Shown piece by piece: positions 46,961 to 55,490 of a DNA stretch of 64,000 nt (its first letter is position 1; the number at the start of each line of letters is the position of its first letter). The DNA is taken from contig JACQDL010000027.1 in the NCBI GenBank assembly GCA_016201065.1, positions 68,641 to 132,640 of the forward strand, in the 5' to 3' direction. Position numbers and translations under genes: made by a program. Source of the stretch: Actinomycetota bacterium. GTDB lineage: Bacteria > Actinomycetota > Actinomycetes > Mycobacteriales > JACQDL01. The notes beneath the pieces are model-generated. The model was not told the DNA's origin, searched no databases, and was given only the letters and a program-made list of their open reading frames with translations.

Positions 46961-47719
46961 GTGGACTGGAGCCTGCGTACCTGCGCCCGCAAGGGGCACA
47001 TCACCTACAAGCCGACCGAGACCGACCTCGCCGACCACCTGCGAGCCACCACACCGCACGGCGAGGCGTGGCGGTGCCTGCGCTGCGGCGGGTACGTGCT
47101 GGGCACCCCGCACGGCAGCGGTCCCGCCGACCGGGCCCCGCTGGTCCTGCGCGGCCGCGCGCTGCGGGACCTGCTCGTACTCCGGCTGCTGGCCGTCGAG
47201 CGGGCCGGCCGGGGCCTGCTGATCCTGCTGCTGGCGTACGGCGTCCTGCGGTTCCGCTCCTCGCAGGCGACCCTGCGGCAGCTCTTCGAGCAGGACCTGC
47301 CCGCCGCCCGGCCGCTCGCCGACAAGCTCAACATCAACCTCGACGAGAGCGGGGTGGTGCACACCATCCGGACCGCGCTGGGGCTCCAGTCCCGGACCCT
47401 GGTCGTCGTCGCACTGGCCCTGGCGGCGTACGCGCTGCTCGGAATCGTGGAGGGTGCCGGACTCTGGTACGCCAAGCGCTGGGCCGAATACCTCGCGGTC
47501 GTCGCCACCAGCGCCTTCCTGCCGCTGGAGGTCTACGAGCTCATCGAGAAGGTCACCGTGCTCCGGGTCTCCGCGCTGGTCTTCAACATCGCGGCCGTGG
47601 TCTACCTGCTCCTCAGCAAGCGGTTGTTCGGGTTGCGCGGCGGCCACGCGGCCTTCGAGGCGGCCAGGCACTCCGAGTCGCTGCTGGAGGTCAGGGCCGT
47701 CGCCCGCACCCGCGGCTGA
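46961..47719 (+). CDS. DUF2127-like membrane protein with N-terminal zinc-ribbon-like CxxC
   Basis: GTG at 46961. [10 protein letters not shown] followed by 4 hydrophobic segments ([28 protein letters not shown] is characteristic of DUF2127). Confidence 0.6.
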
Positions 47720-47900
47720 CCGGCCGCCGCATCAGCGCGGCGCCGCAGCAGCCATACCGACAGCGCTCCACGTGTTCTCTACTCTTGCGCTTCATCACAC
47801 CTAGTGATCGAATGAATACGGTGCCGCTGCAGCGCGGGAAACGGCACGTCGATTCCCCGTACGGCGTCCGGGCGGCCCGCGCCGCAAGGAGGAGGCGCGC

Positions 47901-48629
47901 ATGGCGAGCCCATCCCGCCGGATCACCGACACGGGCGACTGCGGCTTGGCGACACGCGGATTCCTGGCCCACCTCGGTCCACATGCGCGGGAGACACTGC
48001 TTGGTGCCGGTCGGCCGCTCCGGTTTTCGGCCCATGAGACTCTTCTCCGCGAAGGCGAACAGTCGCAGCATGTACTACTGATCGTCAGCGGACGGGTCAA
48101 GATCGTTGCCACCGCACCGAACGGCTACGAAGCGGTGTTGGCAATCCGCGGGCCTGGCGATCTGATTGGCGAGCTGGCGTGCATCGACAACATGCCCCGA
48201 TCGGCAACAGTGGCGGCCTTGGGGCCGGTCCATACGCGGATCATGCCCCGCGTAATCTTCGACGACTTCCTCACCGACCACCCCGTGGCCGCCAAGGTGC
48301 TGGTCCGGATGGTGGCGTGGAAGCTGCGCTGCGCCAACCGCCGCCGCCTGGAGTTCAGCGCCTACCCGGTCCGGCTGCGGCTCGCGTTGGTGCTGCTCGA
48401 ACTTGAGGAATGGTACGGCCGAAGCGGCCACGCCGGCCGCGACCTTGACCTTGCGCTGTCCCAGACGGACCTTGCTGGCCTGGTGGGCGCGTCCATCGAC
48501 TCGGTCTCGAAGGCAATCCGTGCGTTGAGCCAGGCCAGGGTGATCGCCACCGGCCGGCGCCGCGTCACGATCCTGCGGCTCGACGAGCTTCGCGAGATCG
48601 CAGCGCCGATCGCGGCCAGGTGCCGCTGA
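47901..48629 (+). CDS. Crp/Fnr family regulator (cNMP-binding domain plus C-terminal HTH)
   Basis: AAGGAGGAGG RBS. Beta-roll region LLREGEQSQHVLLIVSGRVKI...RGPGDLIGELACIDNMPRSATVAAL. HTH LSQTDLAGLVGASIDSVSKAIRAL. Confidence 0.85.
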   Translation: MASPSRRITDTGDCGLATRGFLAHLGPHARETLLGAGRPLRFSAHETLLREGEQSQHVLLIVSGRVKIVATAPNGYEAVLAIRGPGDLIGELACIDNMPRSATVAALGPVHTRIMPRVIFDDFLTDHPVAAKVLVRMVAWKLRCANRRRLEFSAYPVRLRLALVLLELEEWYGRSGHAGRDLDLALSQTDLAGLVGASIDSVSKAIRALSQARVIATGRRRVTILRLDELREIAAPIAARCR

Positions 48630-48706
48630 ACCCGTACTTTTCCCTGTTCCTCCACGCGGGACACGCCGACGCTGAACCGACGACGCAACAACGACAACGA
48701 GGTGTC

Positions 48707-49474
48707 ATGAAACTGGATCCGGTTTACCGCTATCTCGTCGCTGTCGACATTGAGAGTTACGGCAAACGCGACAACCAAGGCCAATCCGAGCTACGAGCCG
48801 CCTTGCGTCAGGTCCTCGCCGATGCCTTTGACGCGATCGACGTCTCGGTCGATCCGGCCGAGCGCCAGGATCAAGGGGATGCCTTCCTCACGCTCGTGAA
48901 GCCGGAAGTGTCGAAGGTACGTCTCGTCGACGACCTTGTCCGCGAGATCGAAAACGGCCTACGCCGGTCCAACCACTACCGCACCGCTGAGGGAAAGATG
49001 CGCGTCAGGCTCGCGCTCAATGCCGGCGACGTGCACCTGGACGGCACCGGCTTCCCCGGTGAGGCAGTCGTGGCCACCGGGCGCCTCATCGACTCGGTCC
49101 AGCTCAAGGAGTCGTTGGCACGGGCACCCAAGGACCTCGCCGTGATCGTTTCCGATGGGCTGTACCACGACGTGGTCGTCCACCGCTACCAGGCGATCGA
49201 TCCAGCGGAATATCGGCGTGTGGATGTCGCGGTAAAGGAGTTCCGGCAACCGGCCTGGATCCGGATCCCAGGCCACCCGGCGGCGGAGATCGTTACCGAA
49301 GCTGCGTCCGCGACCGCGTCCCCAGCAGCCCAGCGGCCGGTCACCGAGCGGGACGCGGCGTCGCCGGCCGGCACGGCCTCCGCACTGCCCGGATCGATCA
49401 ACCACAGCACGTTCACCGGGCCGACCAGCTTCGGCGGACCGGCCGCCGGGCGCGACGTCAACTACCACCGGTAG
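48707..49474 (+). CDS. Class III nucleotidyl-cyclase-like protein with low-complexity C-terminal tail
   Basis: ATG at 48707. Motif order YLVAVDIESYG / QGDAFLTLV / RVRLALNAGDVHLDG / GEAVVATGRLIDS follows the cyclase catalytic core. The tail ends FGGPAAGRDVNYHR. Confidence 0.55.
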   Translation: MKLDPVYRYLVAVDIESYGKRDNQGQSELRAALRQVLADAFDAIDVSVDPAERQDQGDAFLTLVKPEVSKVRLVDDLVREIENGLRRSNHYRTAEGKMRVRLALNAGDVHLDGTGFPGEAVVATGRLIDSVQLKESLARAPKDLAVIVSDGLYHDVVVHRYQAIDPAEYRRVDVAVKEFRQPAWIRIPGHPAAEIVTEAASATASPAAQRPVTERDAASPAGTASALPGSINHSTFTGPTSFGGPAAGRDVNYHR

Positions 49475-49717
49475 GTCGCCACGATGACCCTGCCAACGAG
49501 CACACCCGACCACGCCCAACGCACCGACTAGTCCGGCAAGCACCCCGGCACTGGCGCCGACCCGGCGTCGGGCACACGAGCGGCGACCGAAGACGCGCCG
49601 AAGGACGGGGCCACCGCCGACGGCAGCGCCGACGACCCCGATGCCGACGACGGGCGGCCAGAGGAGGAACTGCCCCGGGAGGAATGGAGCGCGGTCCGGG
49701 CTATCCGCCGGGCCGGT

Positions 49718-51688
49718 TTGGACAGCTGGGCCCCGACCTACTCGTTCGGCGGGCCGACCAGTCTTGGTGGCCCGTCCGCCGGCAGGGACGTCAACATTTA
49801 CCCCGGGCTCCTGCGGGCCGCGCCAGTGGTAGGGCTGGTGCCGCCCGACGAGCTGGACGAGTTGCGCGAGGTCCACGTCCCCGGACCTGGCTACGACAAG
49901 GCGTGCGGCACACTTCGCGACCGGCATGTCCTGATCTTGTGCGGAGACGAGTTAAGCGGACGCCGGGCGACGGCTCTCCGCCTGCTCACCCACCTTGCCG
50001 GCAAGGCCGTCTATGGCCTGCGCCCTACCGATGGTCTGGACACGGTCTGCCGCGACCACCGCCCAGACCGCGGCTACCTCCTGGATTCGCGGCCAGGCGT
50101 CAGCGCTGCGACGCTCGACCAGGTCCAGCTGTCAGCGCTGGAGGACACACTGCGGCAGGTCGGTTCCTTCCTGGTGGTCACGATCCCGGCGCACGCCGCC
50201 CGCGACTTGCCGGACCTCGACCGCTACCTCGTCGAGCACGGCCACCCGAACCCGCACAAAGTGCTGGACCGCCACCTCAGGTGCGGCTCCAGCACCCACG
50301 CGAACCTACTCAAAGGATGGCTGGCGGACCCCAGGCTCGGCGAACGCGTCGACCGCATGGTCCGACCGCAGGATGCAGTCGCGCTGGCGCTGCAGCTCAT
50401 GAAGGAGGCCGAGGCTGGGACGAGCCTGGACGACGTCCTCAAAGGGCTCGGCAGCAGCGCCACCCGGAGTGAGGCGCAGGCCTTGCTGTCCACCACGACC
50501 TACGGCGAACACGACCTGACCCGACTCCAGCAGCTGTACTGGCGTGCCTTCGTTGTCGCCCTTGCGGTCTTCAACGACACGCCGTACCTGCCTGTCGTGG
50601 CAGCGGCCCAAGACCTCGCCGAACACCTCGGCCGGACCGAGTACCCCCGCTGGGGGCCACCTGGCAAGGCGGCGATCTTCTCGTTGAAACGCGACGACTG
50701 GTTGACCGCACTCGGCGGAGAGCTCGTGTCGCGGGACCGGGAGGGCGCTTCGGACGAGCAGCGGGTGGAGCACGTGCGCATGCGCAACCGCGATCTCCCC
50801 GCCGCTCTGCTAGACGAGCTATGGACGGCGTACGACGGCGCCCGGACGCCGTTGCTGAACTGGTTGAAAGGTCTGATCCAACCGACGCAGCCGCCCGAAA
50901 TACAGGTCCGAGCTGCGCAGTCCGTGGGCTGGCTCGCGGTACACGACTTCGACTCCATCTGCCGGAGGATCATCAGGCAATGGGCGGGGTCACGCCTGCC
51001 GAGCCAACATATGGCCGCCGCGTGGGCGCTGGAGTTCGCGGCGACCTCCGGCGGGTTGGCACCACGGGTGCGAGTCCTCCTGGCCGAGTGGTGCCGTAGC
51101 GCCAACCTGGCGCACCAGGCGACCGCCGTGCTCGCCTACGGCACCACCATCGGGGTGAGGGATCCAGCGGAGGCTCTCCGCAACCTGCGCTCCCCGGCAC
51201 GGTCCGGCAACGCAACCATGACCGCCGTCGTGTCGCGCAGCGTGATCGACCTATTCACCGGCGGCGCAGAGCACGAGGTACTGAATGCACTCCAAGAATG
51301 GGACGCCGACAACGATGACCGGATACGCGTCGCTGCGGCGGGAGCGCTGGTTGAGCTCGCGTACGAGGCGGACGAAACGGGCACTCCAGCGTTGCTGAAG
51401 CTCTTCGCTGGCGCCGACCCGGCGGCCAAGTCGCTTACCGAATTGTGGCGAGCGGCGCTTCAGAACCAGCTGGTGAGAGCGGATGCCTGGGAGGCCCTCC
51501 GCAAGTGGTTCGTGTGGGCTGACAAGGATCCAACGCTCCAGGTCCCGCTGGCGCACCTGCTCACCGCCATCGAGAGAGTCGACCCCACCCTGCGGACGCG
51601 CGTTGCCTGGTACTTGCGCTTCTGGCAGCACCACCCAAAGGAGCCGTCAGCGACGGCCGAGAAGATCCGCTCCGCATGGGAGGAGTAG
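49718..51688 (+). CDS. Large NTPase-like (degenerate Walker A) plus helical-repeat protein; true start unresolved
   Basis: HVLILCGDELSGRRATALRLL sits where a P-loop would be. GYLLDS is Walker-B-like. The C-terminal ~350 aa is HEAT/ARM-like helical. TTG 49718 is the first canonical start, but coding-like sequence continues upstream in frame. Confidence 0.5.
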   Translation: MDSWAPTYSFGGPTSLGGPSAGRDVNIYPGLLRAAPVVGLVPPDELDELREVHVPGPGYDKACGTLRDRHVLILCGDELSGRRATALRLLTHLAGKAVYGLRPTDGLDTVCRDHRPDRGYLLDSRPGVSAATLDQVQLSALEDTLRQVGSFLVVTIPAHAARDLPDLDRYLVEHGHPNPHKVLDRHLRCGSSTHANLLKGWLADPRLGERVDRMVRPQDAVALALQLMKEAEAGTSLDDVLKGLGSSATRSEAQALLSTTTYGEHDLTRLQQLYWRAFVVALAVFNDTPYLPVVAAAQDLAEHLGRTEYPRWGPPGKAAIFSLKRDDWLTALGGELVSRDREGASDEQRVEHVRMRNRDLPAALLDELWTAYDGARTPLLNWLKGLIQPTQPPEIQVRAAQSVGWLAVHDFDSICRRIIRQWAGSRLPSQHMAAAWALEFAATSGGLAPRVRVLLAEWCRSANLAHQATAVLAYGTTIGVRDPAEALRNLRSPARSGNATMTAVVSRSVIDLFTGGAEHEVLNALQEWDADNDDRIRVAAAGALVELAYEADETGTPALLKLFAGADPAAKSLTELWRAALQNQLVRADAWEALRKWFVWADKDPTLQVPLAHLLTAIERVDPTLRTRVAWYLRFWQHHPKEPSATAEKIRSAWEE

Positions 51689-51690
51689 GC

Positions 51691-52533
51691 ATGTCCGACG
51701 ACAAGGTGCGCGAAGCTAGCCAGCCGCGTCGGTTCACACTGTTGCGGACCTGGCTGATCGACTGGACGCGAGAGATCAGGAGACGACGCCGCACTGAGAT
51801 CCGGATGCCGAAGCACGACACCTACTCCGAGCTGCGCACATCCCAGATCTCCGCCCCCAGCAGCGACGATCGCTTCACCTTCCAGGTCACGGTGACGTGC
51901 CTCTGGTCCGGCCCCGGCGAAGCCGCCACGGTCGCCGAGGCGATCCGGCTGCACGAGCCCGAACAGCGCAGAGTGCTCACGCAAGACCTGCGGCGCATCT
52001 CCCGCACCATCGAGCCGGACGAGTTCGCCGTGGTGGAACAGCAGTTGAACGAGTCACTTGAGGAGCCGACGCGCTACCACGACGGGCTGCTCGCCTGTCA
52101 CACCTGGGTCGAGGTAGCGCCCGAGGATACGTTGCGCAAGCACCTGCAACAACAGTGGATCACGAAATCCAATACCGACGCCGCCCATGCGTTGAAGAAG
52201 AACGCGGTGGGCCAGCTCGACGAGCTGACCAAGGAATGGGACAAGTTCCTACGTAACGTCAGGGAGGGCTCGATCTCCCCGCGTGCGGTGAAGCTTGCCG
52301 GGAACACGAACCGGGTCGGGGACGTTGCCGAACAGATGCTCAAGGACCAGGAGGAAACTCAGGCGAAGCTCCGAGAGATCTGCGCCAATGCGGTAAGCGC
52401 GCACGAGCGGCTAGACCTGTACGAGTTCGTGACGTCCTACGACTCGGCATTGCGCCAACTACTCGACTACCTGCAACTCGACCGGGCGGCGACCGACGGC
52501 ACCATCCGTCAGGACGCTCACCGCGCGAGGTGA
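51691..52533 (+). CDS. Hypothetical protein (280 aa), no family recognised
   Basis: ATG at 51691 preceded by GGGAGGAG, 2 nt after the upstream stop. Basic N-terminus, then a helical/coiled C-terminal half. Confidence 0.55.
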   Translation: MSDDKVREASQPRRFTLLRTWLIDWTREIRRRRRTEIRMPKHDTYSELRTSQISAPSSDDRFTFQVTVTCLWSGPGEAATVAEAIRLHEPEQRRVLTQDLRRISRTIEPDEFAVVEQQLNESLEEPTRYHDGLLACHTWVEVAPEDTLRKHLQQQWITKSNTDAAHALKKNAVGQLDELTKEWDKFLRNVREGSISPRAVKLAGNTNRVGDVAEQMLKDQEETQAKLREICANAVSAHERLDLYEFVTSYDSALRQLLDYLQLDRAATDGTIRQDAHRAR

Positions 52534-53039
52534 GCGGCGACCTGCCAGACGGCGACCGCCAGCGCGCTGACACCGGTCCACGCGAGTGCGCGGGAGAAGT
52601 GCCGGTACCGGGCCACAGCAATCACTGAGAGTACGTGCACCTGCCGCCATGCCTGTTCCAACAGAGCGCTCGCCGCGTCGTCTCCAAGACTGGCCGGATT
52701 CATCCCTGCGACGGAGGGAAACGCGAAGTGGTTCGGGTCTGGACCGCCACTGAGACGGGGACGCATGGCTGCGCCGAGATGCCGGGCGATTGCGAGCGAC
52801 GAAACGGCAAACGCGGCCAGGGCGACGAGCGCCACCCTGGCCAGCGCGGAGCGGACCGGCCACACGTCCGAGAAGCCCTGTGTCACCACGAAGAGCGCAA
52901 GTGCAACGTCACCGGCGGCAAGCGTCGCGATCTTGGTGTCGACGTTGGTCACCCAACCGGCGAAGGCATCGACGGTCTGCAACGCCACGGCAATCTGTTG
53001 CGCCGGGCTGAGCCTATCCTCAAGATCATCTTCTTGCAT
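52518..53039 (-). CDS. Small multi-pass membrane protein, Pycsar TM-effector-like (DUF5706-like)
   Basis: ATG at 53039 with GGAGAGG 8 nt upstream (alternative GTG 53048). NVDTKIATLAAG..., 3-4 hydrophobic helices, RPRLSGGPDPNHFAF and VLSVIAVARYRHFSRAL match my memory of this family. Confidence 0.5.
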   Translation of the reverse strand: MQEDDLEDRLSPAQQIAVALQTVDAFAGWVTNVDTKIATLAAGDVALALFVVTQGFSDVWPVRSALARVALVALAAFAVSSLAIARHLGAAMRPRLSGGPDPNHFAFPSVAGMNPASLGDDAASALLEQAWRQVHVLSVIAVARYRHFSRALAWTGVSALAVAVWQVAAHLAR

Positions 53040-53479
53040 CAGCGTCACCTCTCCGGTCGGGTTCCTTGGTCCTCGCGCCAGTAAACGAACTCGGGACCTC
53101 CGCGAGAAGGGAGAAATACGGTCTCAACCAGATCGAGCCGACAGCCGCGGCGGGCGACCGCACCTATGTGATGATCGTCAGGCGGGCGGGACAGCCCGAG
53201 CGGCCCCATTCACGATCAGTAGGGGAATCGAAGCCTAAGTCGGAGCTGGGTCGCGGGGTGGCACCGGGCGGTCCGGCGGCTCGCCTCCCCAGGGTGGCAC
53301 CGCTCCTCAGCAACAGACCCAGGGCCCATCACATCCCTGACTGGCCGTAGCACGTCCGTAGGGCGCACTGGCGGGTGGGCGTTGGAGGGCCCATCATCGC
53401 GCGAAGCCTTGGCCCGCGTGGCTGCGGAGATTCACCTGGAGTATTGCCCAGCTCGTCCGCGGTGCACCGGGACGACTTC

Positions 53480-53746
53480 ATGGTCGCCGACCCGGGGCGT
53501 TGGCGTGGCACCCGGCTGCTGGCCCACCTCACCGAACGCCTGACCAGCCTCCACGGATTCGTCGACCTCAGCGTGCACACCCTGTGGCTGCTGATGGCCC
53601 AGCGACACTGGTTGGCGCGCGACGACCCGGGACTGGCCCGTAGCCTCGAAGACCGCGGGGAACGACTCCTCAGCCAGGACGGGATCTCCCCGCAGTCCCG
53701 TCGAGAACTGATCTCGGTCCTGTACAACCTGCGCGCGATGGGATGA
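53480..53746 (+). CDS. Small hypothetical ORF (88 aa) immediately upstream of the HD gene; possible gene remnant
   Basis: High third-position G+C in this frame. The stop is 4 nt before the HD start. No family recognised. Confidence 0.3.
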   Translation: MVADPGRWRGTRLLAHLTERLTSLHGFVDLSVHTLWLLMAQRHWLARDDPGLARSLEDRGERLLSQDGISPQSRRELISVLYNLRAMG

Positions 53747-53750
53747 ACAC

Positions 53751-54362
53751 ATGACGGACCAACAGCCTGACACCGGGCACGAGGCCGAAGAGGTCAGCGA
53801 CGAACGGATCACCGGGGTCGCGTCGTACCTGTTCGAGGTCGGCGTCCTGAAGCACATCAAGCGCACGGGCTGGTGGATCGCCGGCGTCAAGGACCCCGAG
53901 ACGATCGCCGAACACAGCTTCCGCACCAGCATCCTGGCGACCGTCCTGGCCGCGCTGGAGGGCGCCGACCCCGCCCGCGCCGCCCAACTGGCGGTGTTCC
54001 ACGACACCCAGGAGACCCGCGTCGGGGACATCCCCCACGTGGGACGCCGCTACCTGACCGCCGCCGACAACGAAGCCGTCACCATCGACCAGGTCGCAGA
54101 CTGCCCCCCGGTCGTGGCCGGAGTCCTTCGCGACATCGTCGCCACCTACGAGGCCCAGGACACCCCCGAAGCCCTCGTCGCCAAGGACGCCGACAGACTC
54201 GAATGCCTGATCCAGGCACTGGAATACCGGCGCCAAGGATGCGCAGGCGTCCAGGAATGGATCGACTCCTGCCGCACCGGTCTCAAGACCACCTCCGCGC
54301 AACGTATCGCCGACGCCGCCCTGACCCTCACCGGCCTGGAATGGCAACGCACCCACGCCTGA
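53751..54362 (+). CDS. HD-domain phosphohydrolase, YfbR-like 5'-(deoxy)nucleotidase
   Basis: GVLKHIKRTGWW...ETIAEHSF...VFHDTQETRVGDIP...AKDADRLECL gives the H..HD..D metal ligands in YfbR order. Confidence 0.8.
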   Translation: MTDQQPDTGHEAEEVSDERITGVASYLFEVGVLKHIKRTGWWIAGVKDPETIAEHSFRTSILATVLAALEGADPARAAQLAVFHDTQETRVGDIPHVGRRYLTAADNEAVTIDQVADCPPVVAGVLRDIVATYEAQDTPEALVAKDADRLECLIQALEYRRQGCAGVQEWIDSCRTGLKTTSAQRIADAALTLTGLEWQRTHA

Positions 54363-54455
54363 CGAACGCCTCGGATGACAGCCGACAGGTCGCCTCCCTC
54401 CGCGAGGAACCCACAAGCGTGTAGGCGCAGTTCACGGACGAAGGTAAGCGGATGG

Positions 54456-55490
54456 TCAGGCGCTCCTCGGCGGGCTGCTTGGCGGCGATCTCCGCCAAGG
54501 TGTCCCTGCCGGGCTGCCGGGACCGAGCGGTCGGCGTACCGCGTCGACGAGCTCGTCGGCGGCGGTGTAGGGGTCGAGCGTGCCGGCCGCCACCCGGGCG
54601 GCCAGACCCGGCAGCGCCGCAGCGCCGGGCAGCTCCCGCAGCGCCGCCAGGGCGATCGCCTCGACCTCGGCCGCCGCCCGGGCCTGCCGGCGGCGGTCCA
54701 GCTCACCGGAGTCCACCAGCCAGGCGCGGTGCCGGTCGATCTCGGCCGCGAGCTCGTCGATCCCCTCACCCCGGACCGCGACGGTCTTCACGATCGGCGG
54801 GCGCCACCCGCCGGCCTCCGAATGCGCGCCGCCCAGCGCCTGCATCTGGCGCAGGTCCCGCACCGTCTGGTCGGCGCCGTCCCGGTCCGCCTTGTTCACG
54901 CAGAACACGTCCGCCACCTCGAGGATGCCGGCCTTCGCGGCCTGTATCCCATCGCCCATCCCGGGCGCGAGCAGCACCACGGTGGTGTCGGCCAGCGAGG
55001 CGATCTCCACCTCGGCCTGGCCGACCCCGACGGTCTCCACCAGGACCACGTCGACGCCGGCGGCGTCCAGCACCCGCAGCGCCTGCGGGGTGGCCCAGGA
55101 CAGCCCGCCCAGGTGCCCGCGGGAGGCCATCGACCGGATGAAGACTCCCGGATCGGTGGCGTGCTCCTGCATCCGGACCCGGTCGCCCAGCAGCGCACCG
55201 CCGGAGAACGGCGAGGACGGGTCGACGGCGAGCACGCCTACCCGGCGGCCGGCCGCCCGGTAGGCAGCCACCAGCGCCGAGGTCGAGGTCGACGTCCCCA
55301 CCCCGGGCGCGCCGGTCAGCCCGATCACCTGGGCGTGCCCGGTGTGCGGAGCGAGCGCCCGGGCCACCTCGCGGAGCACCGGGCTGGCCTGCTCCACCAG
55401 CGAGATCAGCCGGGCGATCGCGCGGGGGTCGCCGGCACGCGCCCGCTCGATGAGATCGGGAACGTCGGCGACCCGCCGCACCGCAGTCAC
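54456..55490 (-). CDS. meaB: MeaB/ArgK-type G3E GTPase (acyl-CoA mutase chaperone) with non-canonical P-loop
   Basis: AVDPSSPFSGGALLGDRVRM, LVETVGVGQAE and NKADRDG are all present. Walker A reads GAPGVGTST (Thr where Lys is expected). Confidence 0.85.
   Translation of the reverse strand: MTAVRRVADVPDLIERARAGDPRAIARLISLVEQASPVLREVARALAPHTGHAQVIGLTGAPGVGTSTSTSALVAAYRAAGRRVGVLAVDPSSPFSGGALLGDRVRMQEHATDPGVFIRSMASRGHLGGLSWATPQALRVLDAAGVDVVLVETVGVGQAEVEIASLADTTVVLLAPGMGDGIQAAKAGILEVADVFCVNKADRDGADQTVRDLRQMQALGGAHSEAGGWRPPIVKTVAVRGEGIDELAAEIDRHRAWLVDSGELDRRRQARAAAEVEAIALAALRELPGAAALPGLAARVAAGTLDPYTAADELVDAVRRPLGPGSPAGTPWRRSPPSSPPRSA

Follow-up and report, generated by a model that had tools for sequence, protein, structure and literature searches.

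Introduction

Pycsar and its cGMP branch, Pucsar (bioRxiv 10.64898/2026.08.12.744502), are known as two-gene systems in which the trigger of the cyclase is still open. Their membrane-disrupting arm, PycTM, is activated in Pycsar by a cyclic nucleotide monophosphate (cNMP; PMC11224242), and its family has been named the pJV1-SpdB3 three-transmembrane (3TM) family, for one relative of which a hexameric, channel-like cryo-EM structure is reported (bioRxiv 10.64898/2026.08.12.744502). Here we describe a pycTM gene on a 64,000-nucleotide stretch (the window, W) of contig JACQDL010000027.1 from an Actinomycetota bacterium with a 3.65-Mb genome (GCA_016201065.1). We conclude that its product is probably the output of a mobile five-gene cyclic-nucleotide cassette, most likely a Pycsar-related anti-invader system of the abortive-infection type.

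Three further groups of systems resemble parts of this locus. STAND-linked cNMP cyclases of 'immune clade 1' are predicted to be immune (bioRxiv 10.64898/2026.08.12.744502), and the same prediction has been made for the coupling of cNMP cyclases to Band 7 modules in actinobacterial conflict systems (Kaur et al. 2020, PMC7159879). In NLR/effector pairs with bacterial amyloid signalling sequences (BASS), adjacent genes share a short motif, and a guanylate cyclase domain is found among the non-Bell effectors (bioRxiv 10.1101/2020.01.06.895854).

Results

A full-length member of the PycTM family

52518..53039, minus strand: PycTM-family 3TM membrane effector, 173 amino acids (aa); matches PF18967 and the PADLOC PycTM models, three predicted hydrophobic helices, 17 homologues

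The 173-aa open reading frame (ORF) to which an earlier note on this DNA had drawn attention is present in the ORF listing, and all of the peptide motifs that the note quoted were found in its translation. It starts at the ATG at 53039, with a GGAGAGG ribosome-binding site (Shine-Dalgarno) 8 nucleotides (nt) upstream, and ends at the TGA at 52518-52520. A chance ORF would not be expected to look like this, because the GC content by codon position (0.73/0.51/0.75) follows a coding pattern and because there are 17 homologues, all metagenomic, 169-179 aa long, 51-59% identical and annotated as PF18967, whose alignment, together with a copy from Carbonactinospora, has 30 invariant columns. These columns cluster in GWVxNxDTK before the first transmembrane (TM) helix, TM1, and in NHFxFPSVA and QAW..H.LS.IA..R in the loop.

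The family guess of the note, a Pycsar effector of DUF5706 (by the note's account the former name of this family, PF18967), held up when profile hidden Markov models were applied. PF18967 ('Pycsar effector protein') matched with 34.4 bits (E 3e-8, profile positions 7-104 of 107), and with 34.7 bits in a scan of the protein's own genome, above the gathering cutoff of 27.2 bits. Three PADLOC PycTM models matched end to end: PDLC02363 (4.9e-16, residues 17-168 against model positions 4-149 of 154, with residues numbered on the 176-aa GTG-start translation of the ORF), PDLC02364 (3.6e-12) and PDLC02365 (1.5e-7). An NCBIfam scan of the protein gave no match, and a sequence search of the PDB gave nothing significant. 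The best PDB entry was CALHM1, a large-pore channel, with a weak and non-significant profile likeness (E 0.05) over residues 67-169, which comprise TM2, the loop and TM3.

The note had also proposed an acidic N-terminus, hydrophobic helices, a loop and a C-terminal TM region. In agreement with this layout, three hydrophobic segments (residues ~37-57, 64-88 and 150-171), counted on the Kyte-Doolittle hydropathy scale only, follow an N-terminus with 7 D/E versus 2 K/R. TM2 and TM3 have basic residues at the ends that face the 60-residue loop, and the positive-inside rule would place both the N-terminus and this long conserved loop in the cytoplasm. Judged by its sequence, PycTM is a full-length PF18967-family protein with three predicted helices, and by family membership it would be a cNMP-triggered membrane disruptor.

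PycTM is linked to a cyclase-like gene and three further genes

Contigs that carry PycTM homologues share a cassette in which genes for a Crp-like regulator (226-242 aa) and for proteins of ~257, ~730 and ~280 aa are followed by a convergent pycTM. The window carries the same five genes; the four that accompany pycTM are listed here with the abbreviations used below for gene order.

47901..48629, plus strand: Crp/Fnr-family regulator (Crp), 242 aa, first gene of the cassette; cNMP_binding and HTH_Crp_2 domains
48707..49474, plus strand: cyclase-like protein (Cyc), 255 aa; predicted class III fold over residues 1-200, disordered linker, C-terminal tag FTGPTSFGGPAAGRDVN
49484..51688, plus strand: STAND/HEAT-like large protein (Big); in-frame TAG at 49529-49531, longest open frame from TTG 49718 (656 aa), N-terminal tag YSFGGPTSLGGPSAGRDVN
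51691..52533, plus strand: 280-aa protein (U285; 280/285-aa ORF) of an unnamed family, SPFH/Band-7-like by predicted fold; stop codon at 52531-52533

We compared this arrangement with related loci (labels beginning with L) and with a sample of 401 genomes of the window's order (labels beginning with G). By tblastn, orthologues of all five genes follow one another in L002-L006 as they do in the window (Crp, Cyc, Big, U285, PycTM), and one of these loci comes from a cultured organism, Carbonactinospora thermoautotrophica (GCA_001543895.1; JYIJ01000019.1, 258754-275491). The crp gene stands next to the cyclase gene in L002-L007, L009, L020-L026 and L044-L048, and homologues of the large protein, 709-735 aa long, lie downstream of the cyclase in L002-L007. 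In L023-L026, where identity to the window families is 27-39%, the cassette is rearranged so that U285<-Big<-Cyc faces away from PycTM->Crp; a PycTM copy from a distant cassette also passes PF18967, with 33.6 bits. This order and this level of identity are those of the Crp, cyclase and large-protein homologues beside PycTM in five of the eight other PycTM-containing genomes in the sample (G136, G116, G105, G291 and G290). Because the linkage survives both rearrangement and deep divergence, there is strong evidence that the cassette is a functional unit.

The layout is reduced in G017 (L020, 10608-11558), where the cyclase gene lies directly upstream of pycTM and crp is present, without the STAND or 280-aa genes. 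In place of the FGGP tag described below, the C-terminus of the G017 cyclase has a stretch rich in Q, G and Y, VQGLFTAGQVYYQGHLTVNAG, together with a long tail rich in His and Asp. A dynamin-like GTPase gene lies upstream of this minimal variant. An ordinary PF00211 cyclase stands beside PycTM in G376, and G028 carries an orphan PycTM copy. A pattern-based scan of genome contigs with the PycTM alignment returned one locus only, a truncated Pseudonocardiaceae copy.

A class III cyclase fold and a tag shared with the large protein

The AlphaFold2 model of the cyclase-like protein (predicted local distance difference test score, pLDDT, 81.5) is confident over residues 1-200 and disordered over residues 203-255. 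Adenylyl and guanylyl cyclases were its top Foldseek matches (E 4e-9, target TM-score 0.65-0.77, 147 matches at <=1e-3), and, as modeled, the product of this linked gene has the class III cyclase fold. This predicted fold and the linkage kept across related loci bear out the suspicion of the earlier note that a 'cyclase-like gene' is tied to pycTM. In a comparison of the family profile with PDB entry 3mr7, the two Asp residues that bind metal and the Arg of the transition state are kept and the Asn is replaced; the catalytic Asp, Asp and Arg are invariant across 38 cyclase sequences. No Pfam or PADLOC model matched the protein at E<=1, including PF00211 and the PycC models, and a PDB search with the single cyclase sequence gave no result.

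The disordered C-terminus of the cyclase carries a tag, FTGPTSFGGPAAGRDVN, that matches the N-terminal tag of the large protein, YSFGGPTSLGGPSAGRDVN. This pair is kept in the window, L002 and L005 and co-varies by locus (GGP/GGP in L002, GGY/GGY in L005), and the motif residues are invariant in the 38 cyclases. Elsewhere in the large protein, Pfam gives sub-cutoff matches to nSTAND3 (E 0.001-0.03) and HEAT, and a P-loop-like GxxxxGR(R/S) has Arg in place of the Walker A Lys and otherwise resembles the RecA P-loop. In the window the gene starts at ATG 49484 and meets an in-frame TAG at codon 16 (49529-49531), a region through which the frame is open in L002, L004 and L005; TTG 49718 reopens the frame just ahead of the conserved tag.

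The 280-aa protein matched nothing in Pfam, PADLOC or NCBIfam, and 10 sampled family members were also without a Pfam (Band_7) match. A word-indexed homologue search returned only the protein itself and a full HMMER search found the family, which comprises 465 cluster representatives at E<=1e-3 in a profile search. Its AlphaFold2 model has a mean pLDDT of 67 (core 80-90), and the top 16 PDB matches by Foldseek are all SPFH proteins (E 3e-4 to 4e-2, target TM-score up to 0.5), those named being QmcA, HflK/C, stomatin, flotillin and FliL (E 3e-4 to 1e-2).

A conserved box precedes both the cyclase operon and pycTM

The Crp-like regulator matches cNMP_binding (3.9e-21) and HTH_Crp_2 (7e-14) in Pfam, and its closest PDB relatives are GlxR and Mycobacterium tuberculosis CRP (2e-26). 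It keeps the G-E...R-S residues that bind the cNMP phosphate. Its recognition helix reads GAS(I/L)(D/E)SVSK where CRP has RETVxK, a change that fits a non-canonical half-site.

Alignment of the regions upstream of pycTM revealed a conserved block ~70-80 nt before the start codon, a 14-nt box with the consensus CCGTAyTTyTmCCT that is also found before the cyclase gene.

48632..48645, plus strand: Box 1, CCGTACTTTTCCCT, immediately following the stop codon of crp; the cyclase ATG is ~62 nt further downstream
53108..53121, minus strand: Box 2, CCGTATTTCTCCCT, 69-82 nt upstream of the pycTM ATG

Box 1 is in the same position in every close cassette, and box 2 is conserved upstream of pycTM in the window, L002, L004, L005, L006 and L010. 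The number of boxes follows gene content: exactly two per locus, before cyc and before pycTM, in the window and L002-L006, and one, before the cyclase gene, in L007 and L008, which are without pycTM. Only two exact matches exist in the whole 3.65-Mb genome, both in the cassette. In the rearranged cassettes L023-L026, two boxes lie head to head between cyc and pycTM, each directed toward its gene, and in distant relatives without PycTM the box is a dyad, CCGTA-N4-TACGG, which is perfect upstream of cyc in L021, L044, L046 and L048. Crp/Fnr-type operators read TGTGA-N6-TCACA or TTGAT-N4-ATCAA, and the latter, the FNR site, has the same 5-4-5 dyad geometry. From the placement of the box, its dyad geometry and the changed recognition helix, we infer that the Crp-like regulator controls both the cyclase operon and pycTM through this candidate operator, and the boxes before these two transcription units would be its only exact-match targets.

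The canonical CRP site TGTGA-N6-TCACA was also considered upstream of pycTM and crp and was rejected in favor of the CCGTA box, as its matches were weak (7-8/10), confined to the window and without conservation in the relatives. The Rfam scan, which covered 47000-55000, gave 0 matches. The pycTM leader contains a second conserved block at 53066-53085 (GTTCGTTTACTGG; consensus CACTTGACTGTTCAC), ~25 nt downstream of box 2, with equivalents in L002, L004, L005 and L023, and a hexamer, GAyNCT, follows box 1 at the matching position after a 17-nt spacer. The arrangement of box and leader block looks promoter-like, yet fits no consensus.

The cassette is patchily distributed and appears mobile

A PycTM profile found the family in 9 of the 401 genomes and in neither of the two genomes of the window's own family. 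Each locus has its own, unrelated flanking genes (cutinase, DUF899, DisA/RadA and HhH-GPD among them). The earlier note had allowed for a housekeeping membrane protein with conserved synteny; flanks that differ in every locus and a presence in 9/401 genomes do not fit that reading. GC content at third codon positions is 0.75-0.84 in the cassette versus 0.92-0.94 in the adjacent core genes meaB and thiolase, and synteny with a family relative (G009) ends at meaB. Comparison with same-family genomes for an empty site defined no clean insertion boundary or repeats. Given these features, the cassette appears to be horizontally mobile and island-like.

Some copies sit among mobile genes or are damaged. 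L007 (195-16804) holds Crp-Cyc-Big-U285 without PycTM in an element that also encodes a relaxase, an integrase of phage type, AbiEii and a PhdYeFM antitoxin-like protein, a context that suggests carriage on an integrative mobile element. In L004 (8386-11051) the cyclase is truncated (178 aa, tag lost) near the insertion sequence (IS) genes DDE_Tnp_1 and DUF4096, with only crp between, and in L008 the large gene is fragmented; both are cases of cassette decay. The MeaB-type GTPase gene of the window (minus strand) encodes GAPGVGTST at 55287-55313, with Thr where the Walker A Lys is expected.

Two of the other families are more widespread than PycTM. The 280-aa family occurs in 34 of the 401 genomes and the cyclase family in 52, often in several copies and inside open frames of 600-1600 aa. 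At least six cyclase copies per genome are present in one family of 8-10 Mb genomes (e.g., G115, G126, G213, G269 and G290), and the long frames suggest all-in-one fusions with other modules.

Discussion

Proposed mechanism

The mechanism that we propose starts from what the sequence comparisons and structure models show: PycTM belongs to its family, the cyclase models as class III, the genes stay linked when their order changes, a box is shared, and the cassette is scattered in the manner of an island. The STAND/HEAT-like protein would sense a trigger, and its G/N-rich N-terminal tag would recruit and cluster the tagged cyclase, as the tag pair and the precedent of BASS/NLR systems suggest. 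Class III cyclases require dimerisation for activity. The clustered enzyme would then make a 3',5'-cNMP, consistent with its predicted fold and its conserved metal and Arg residues, and PycTM would read this signal and permeabilise or depolarise the membrane as its relatives do in Pycsar and Pucsar. The Crp-like regulator may also read the cNMP and act at the CCGTA-N4-TAC.. boxes, thereby co-regulating production of the signal and of the effector. Finally, and as the most speculative step, the SPFH-like protein might scaffold or restrain the membrane step. A more elaborate version has three stacked layers, in which the STAND-like sensor activates the cyclase by templated, amyloid-like assembly of the tags, the cNMP is read by both PycTM and the Crp/Fnr regulator, and a feed-forward or licensing loop is combined with an SPFH-like cage on the pore; this elaboration is tentative, and we would sooner expect it to fail in some part than to hold as a whole.

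Several observations weigh against the cassette being a working defense system with PycTM as its output. The cyclase misses PF00211 and all PADLOC PycC models and is without the transition-state Asn, so catalysis is unproven. The STAND assignment is weak, with matches below cutoff and the Walker A Lys changed to Arg, and the nonsense codon at position 16 of this gene may impair the local copy. The SPFH label rests on a model with a pLDDT of 67 and on TM-scores of ~0.3-0.5. Because the box is poorly palindromic in the window's clade, it could be a promoter element rather than an operator, and a scan for sigma-70 promoters and intrinsic terminators found 0 sites. Finally, at least six genomes of the order carry Crp beside Cyc-Big-U285 without PycTM, which implies that PycTM is an optional effector module added to a broader Crp-cyclase-STAND-SPFH-like core and that the core must have another output. 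The claim that PycTM is the output is tempered accordingly.

Alternative explanations

The earlier note had pictured a two-part Pycsar-like unit, in which the partner of PycTM is a YfbR-type HD hydrolase encoded by a divergent gene, and antisense or terminator interference at the 3' ends ties pycTM to the 280-aa gene. Both structural details are correct: an HD_3/YfbR-like gene lies at 53751..54362 (plus strand), divergent from pycTM and ~710 nt from its start, close to the ~700 bp given in the note, and the 16-nt tail-to-tail overlap is real (stop codons at 52531-52533 and 52518-52520). The functional links did not survive comparison. A tblastn search with the window HD protein found a homologue in 0 of 20 related loci, 14 of which have a PycTM homologue, and no HD families are listed in the precomputed Pfam tables of L002-L009. 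An 88-aa ORF without a Pfam match ends 4 nt before the HD gene (the pair spans 53480-54362), and the two are also paired in G014 (52% identity for the small ORF, 73% for the HD gene) and in G011, far from any cassette gene or meaB; they may be an independent two-gene module in the same variable region, and the HD gene is outside the signaling system. The distance between pycTM and the 280-aa gene varies from -16 nt in the window through -4 (L005), +20 (L004) and +55 (L006) to +105 nt (L003), and in the rearranged distant cassettes the genes are neither convergent nor adjacent, so the overlap is incidental; no terminator-like structure was found. This two-part unit is extremely unlikely. Nearly as hard to credit is the idea that PycTM is an SpdB3-like plasmid-spread protein of an integrated actinomycete conjugative element rather than a nucleotide-activated effector. 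The family name, pJV1-SpdB3 3TM (bioRxiv 10.64898/2026.08.12.744502), and the one related cassette in an integrase and relaxase element speak for it, but that very cassette lacks PycTM, the neighborhood of pycTM contains no tra, spd or rep genes either in the window or in L002-L006, and the linkage is instead to cyclase and crp genes.

The remaining two alternatives accept the cassette itself. It might be a physiological cNMP regulon of filamentous actinobacteria, serving, for example, membrane permeabilisation or cell death in stress or development, with the Crp-like protein as main output and PycTM as an accessory target. A dedicated transcription factor with a shared box does suggest gene regulation as an output, several cassettes are wholly without PycTM, and BASS/NLR-type systems are enriched in multicellular bacteria (bioRxiv 10.1101/2020.01.06.895854; PMC7159879). 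Against such a role stand the patchy, island-like spread with changing flanks, the cassette inside the integrase/relaxase/AbiEii element, and the function in phage defense of all characterized PycTM/PucTM proteins (PMC11224242; bioRxiv 10.64898/2026.08.12.744502). Moreover, the box is not repeated exactly anywhere else in the genome, which argues against a wider regulon, and we regard this explanation as unlikely. A somewhat stronger case, still doubtful, can be made that the window cassette is decaying, the nonsense codon having disconnected the sensor and left pycTM a silent or orphaned remnant, which would be compatible with anti-invader function in the family as a whole. The TAG interrupts, after 15 codons, a frame that stays open in L002, L004 and L005, and decayed copies exist elsewhere (the IS-truncated cyclase of L004, the fragmented large gene of L008). 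However, a product of 656 aa with all of the conserved blocks can be read from TTG 49718, neither the other four genes nor the two boxes are damaged, and the TAG may be a sequencing error of this single assembly.

Significance

If the locus is a Pycsar-related anti-invader cassette, it offers a natural case in which PycTM is encoded together with a STAND-like sensor, connected to the cyclase through a matching peptide tag, and with a transcription factor that would receive the same signal. Cyclase activation and nucleotide control of effector expression both become directly testable in such a cassette, and the Carbonactinospora thermoautotrophica copy (GCA_001543895.1) is available from a cultured strain. 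Current rule sets, which rely on PADLOC PycC models and PF00211, would miss loci of this kind. Within one actinobacterial order the Cyc-STAND-SPFH-like core occurs fairly often, as indicated by the cyclase family in 52/401 genomes.

Comparison with known systems

The closest likeness is to Pycsar (PycC plus PycTM), as outlined in the account of Tal et al. 2021 given by PMC11224242, and to Pucsar. The effector belongs to the same family, PF18967, with 3 TM helices and ~170 aa; a cyclase of class III fold is genetically linked to it; the spread is island-like; and in G017 the cyclase gene is directly upstream of pycTM. Unlike in Pycsar, the window cyclase matches neither the PycC models nor PF00211 and has a tag at its C-terminus, three additional genes (Crp-like, STAND/HEAT-like and SPFH-like) are conserved, and pycTM is transcribed as a unit of its own, convergent to the rest and preceded by a second copy of the shared box. 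The cyclase gene of the window is 3 kb from pycTM with two genes between, and only G017 approaches the two-gene operon. Because neither the PycC models nor PF00211 recognize the cyclase and the genes do not form a two-gene operon, the locus is not canonical Pycsar, and PADLOC-type rules would not call it as such.

In architecture the tag pair resembles BASS (Dyrka et al.), with a G/N-rich motif at the C-terminus of the effector and the N-terminus of its neighbor in an actinobacterial host. The partner differs in having only a weak likeness to STAND proteins, HEAT-type repeats and Arg for Lys in Walker A, and a putative set of cNMP receptors (PycTM and the Crp-like protein), which Dyrka et al. 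do not describe, is attached. The coupling of a cNMP cyclase to a STAND-type NTPase and an SPFH/Band-7-like module that is predicted here has counterparts in the predicted immune and conflict systems of Actinobacteria. Those systems are domain fusions or vWA-MoxR systems, whereas here separate genes are joined by a tag pair and accompanied by a Pycsar-type 3TM effector and a dedicated Crp/Fnr regulator. That regulator shares its domain architecture and the residues that bind the cNMP phosphate with the Crp/Fnr regulators GlxR and M. tuberculosis CRP, and its candidate operator has the 5-4-5 dyad geometry; it departs from them in a recognition helix without the R-E...R/K residues, in the half-site CCGTA and in exact-match targets apparently confined to the cassette. 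We did not find this combination of parts described in the literature; each part has precedent, and the locus is a Pycsar-related variant.

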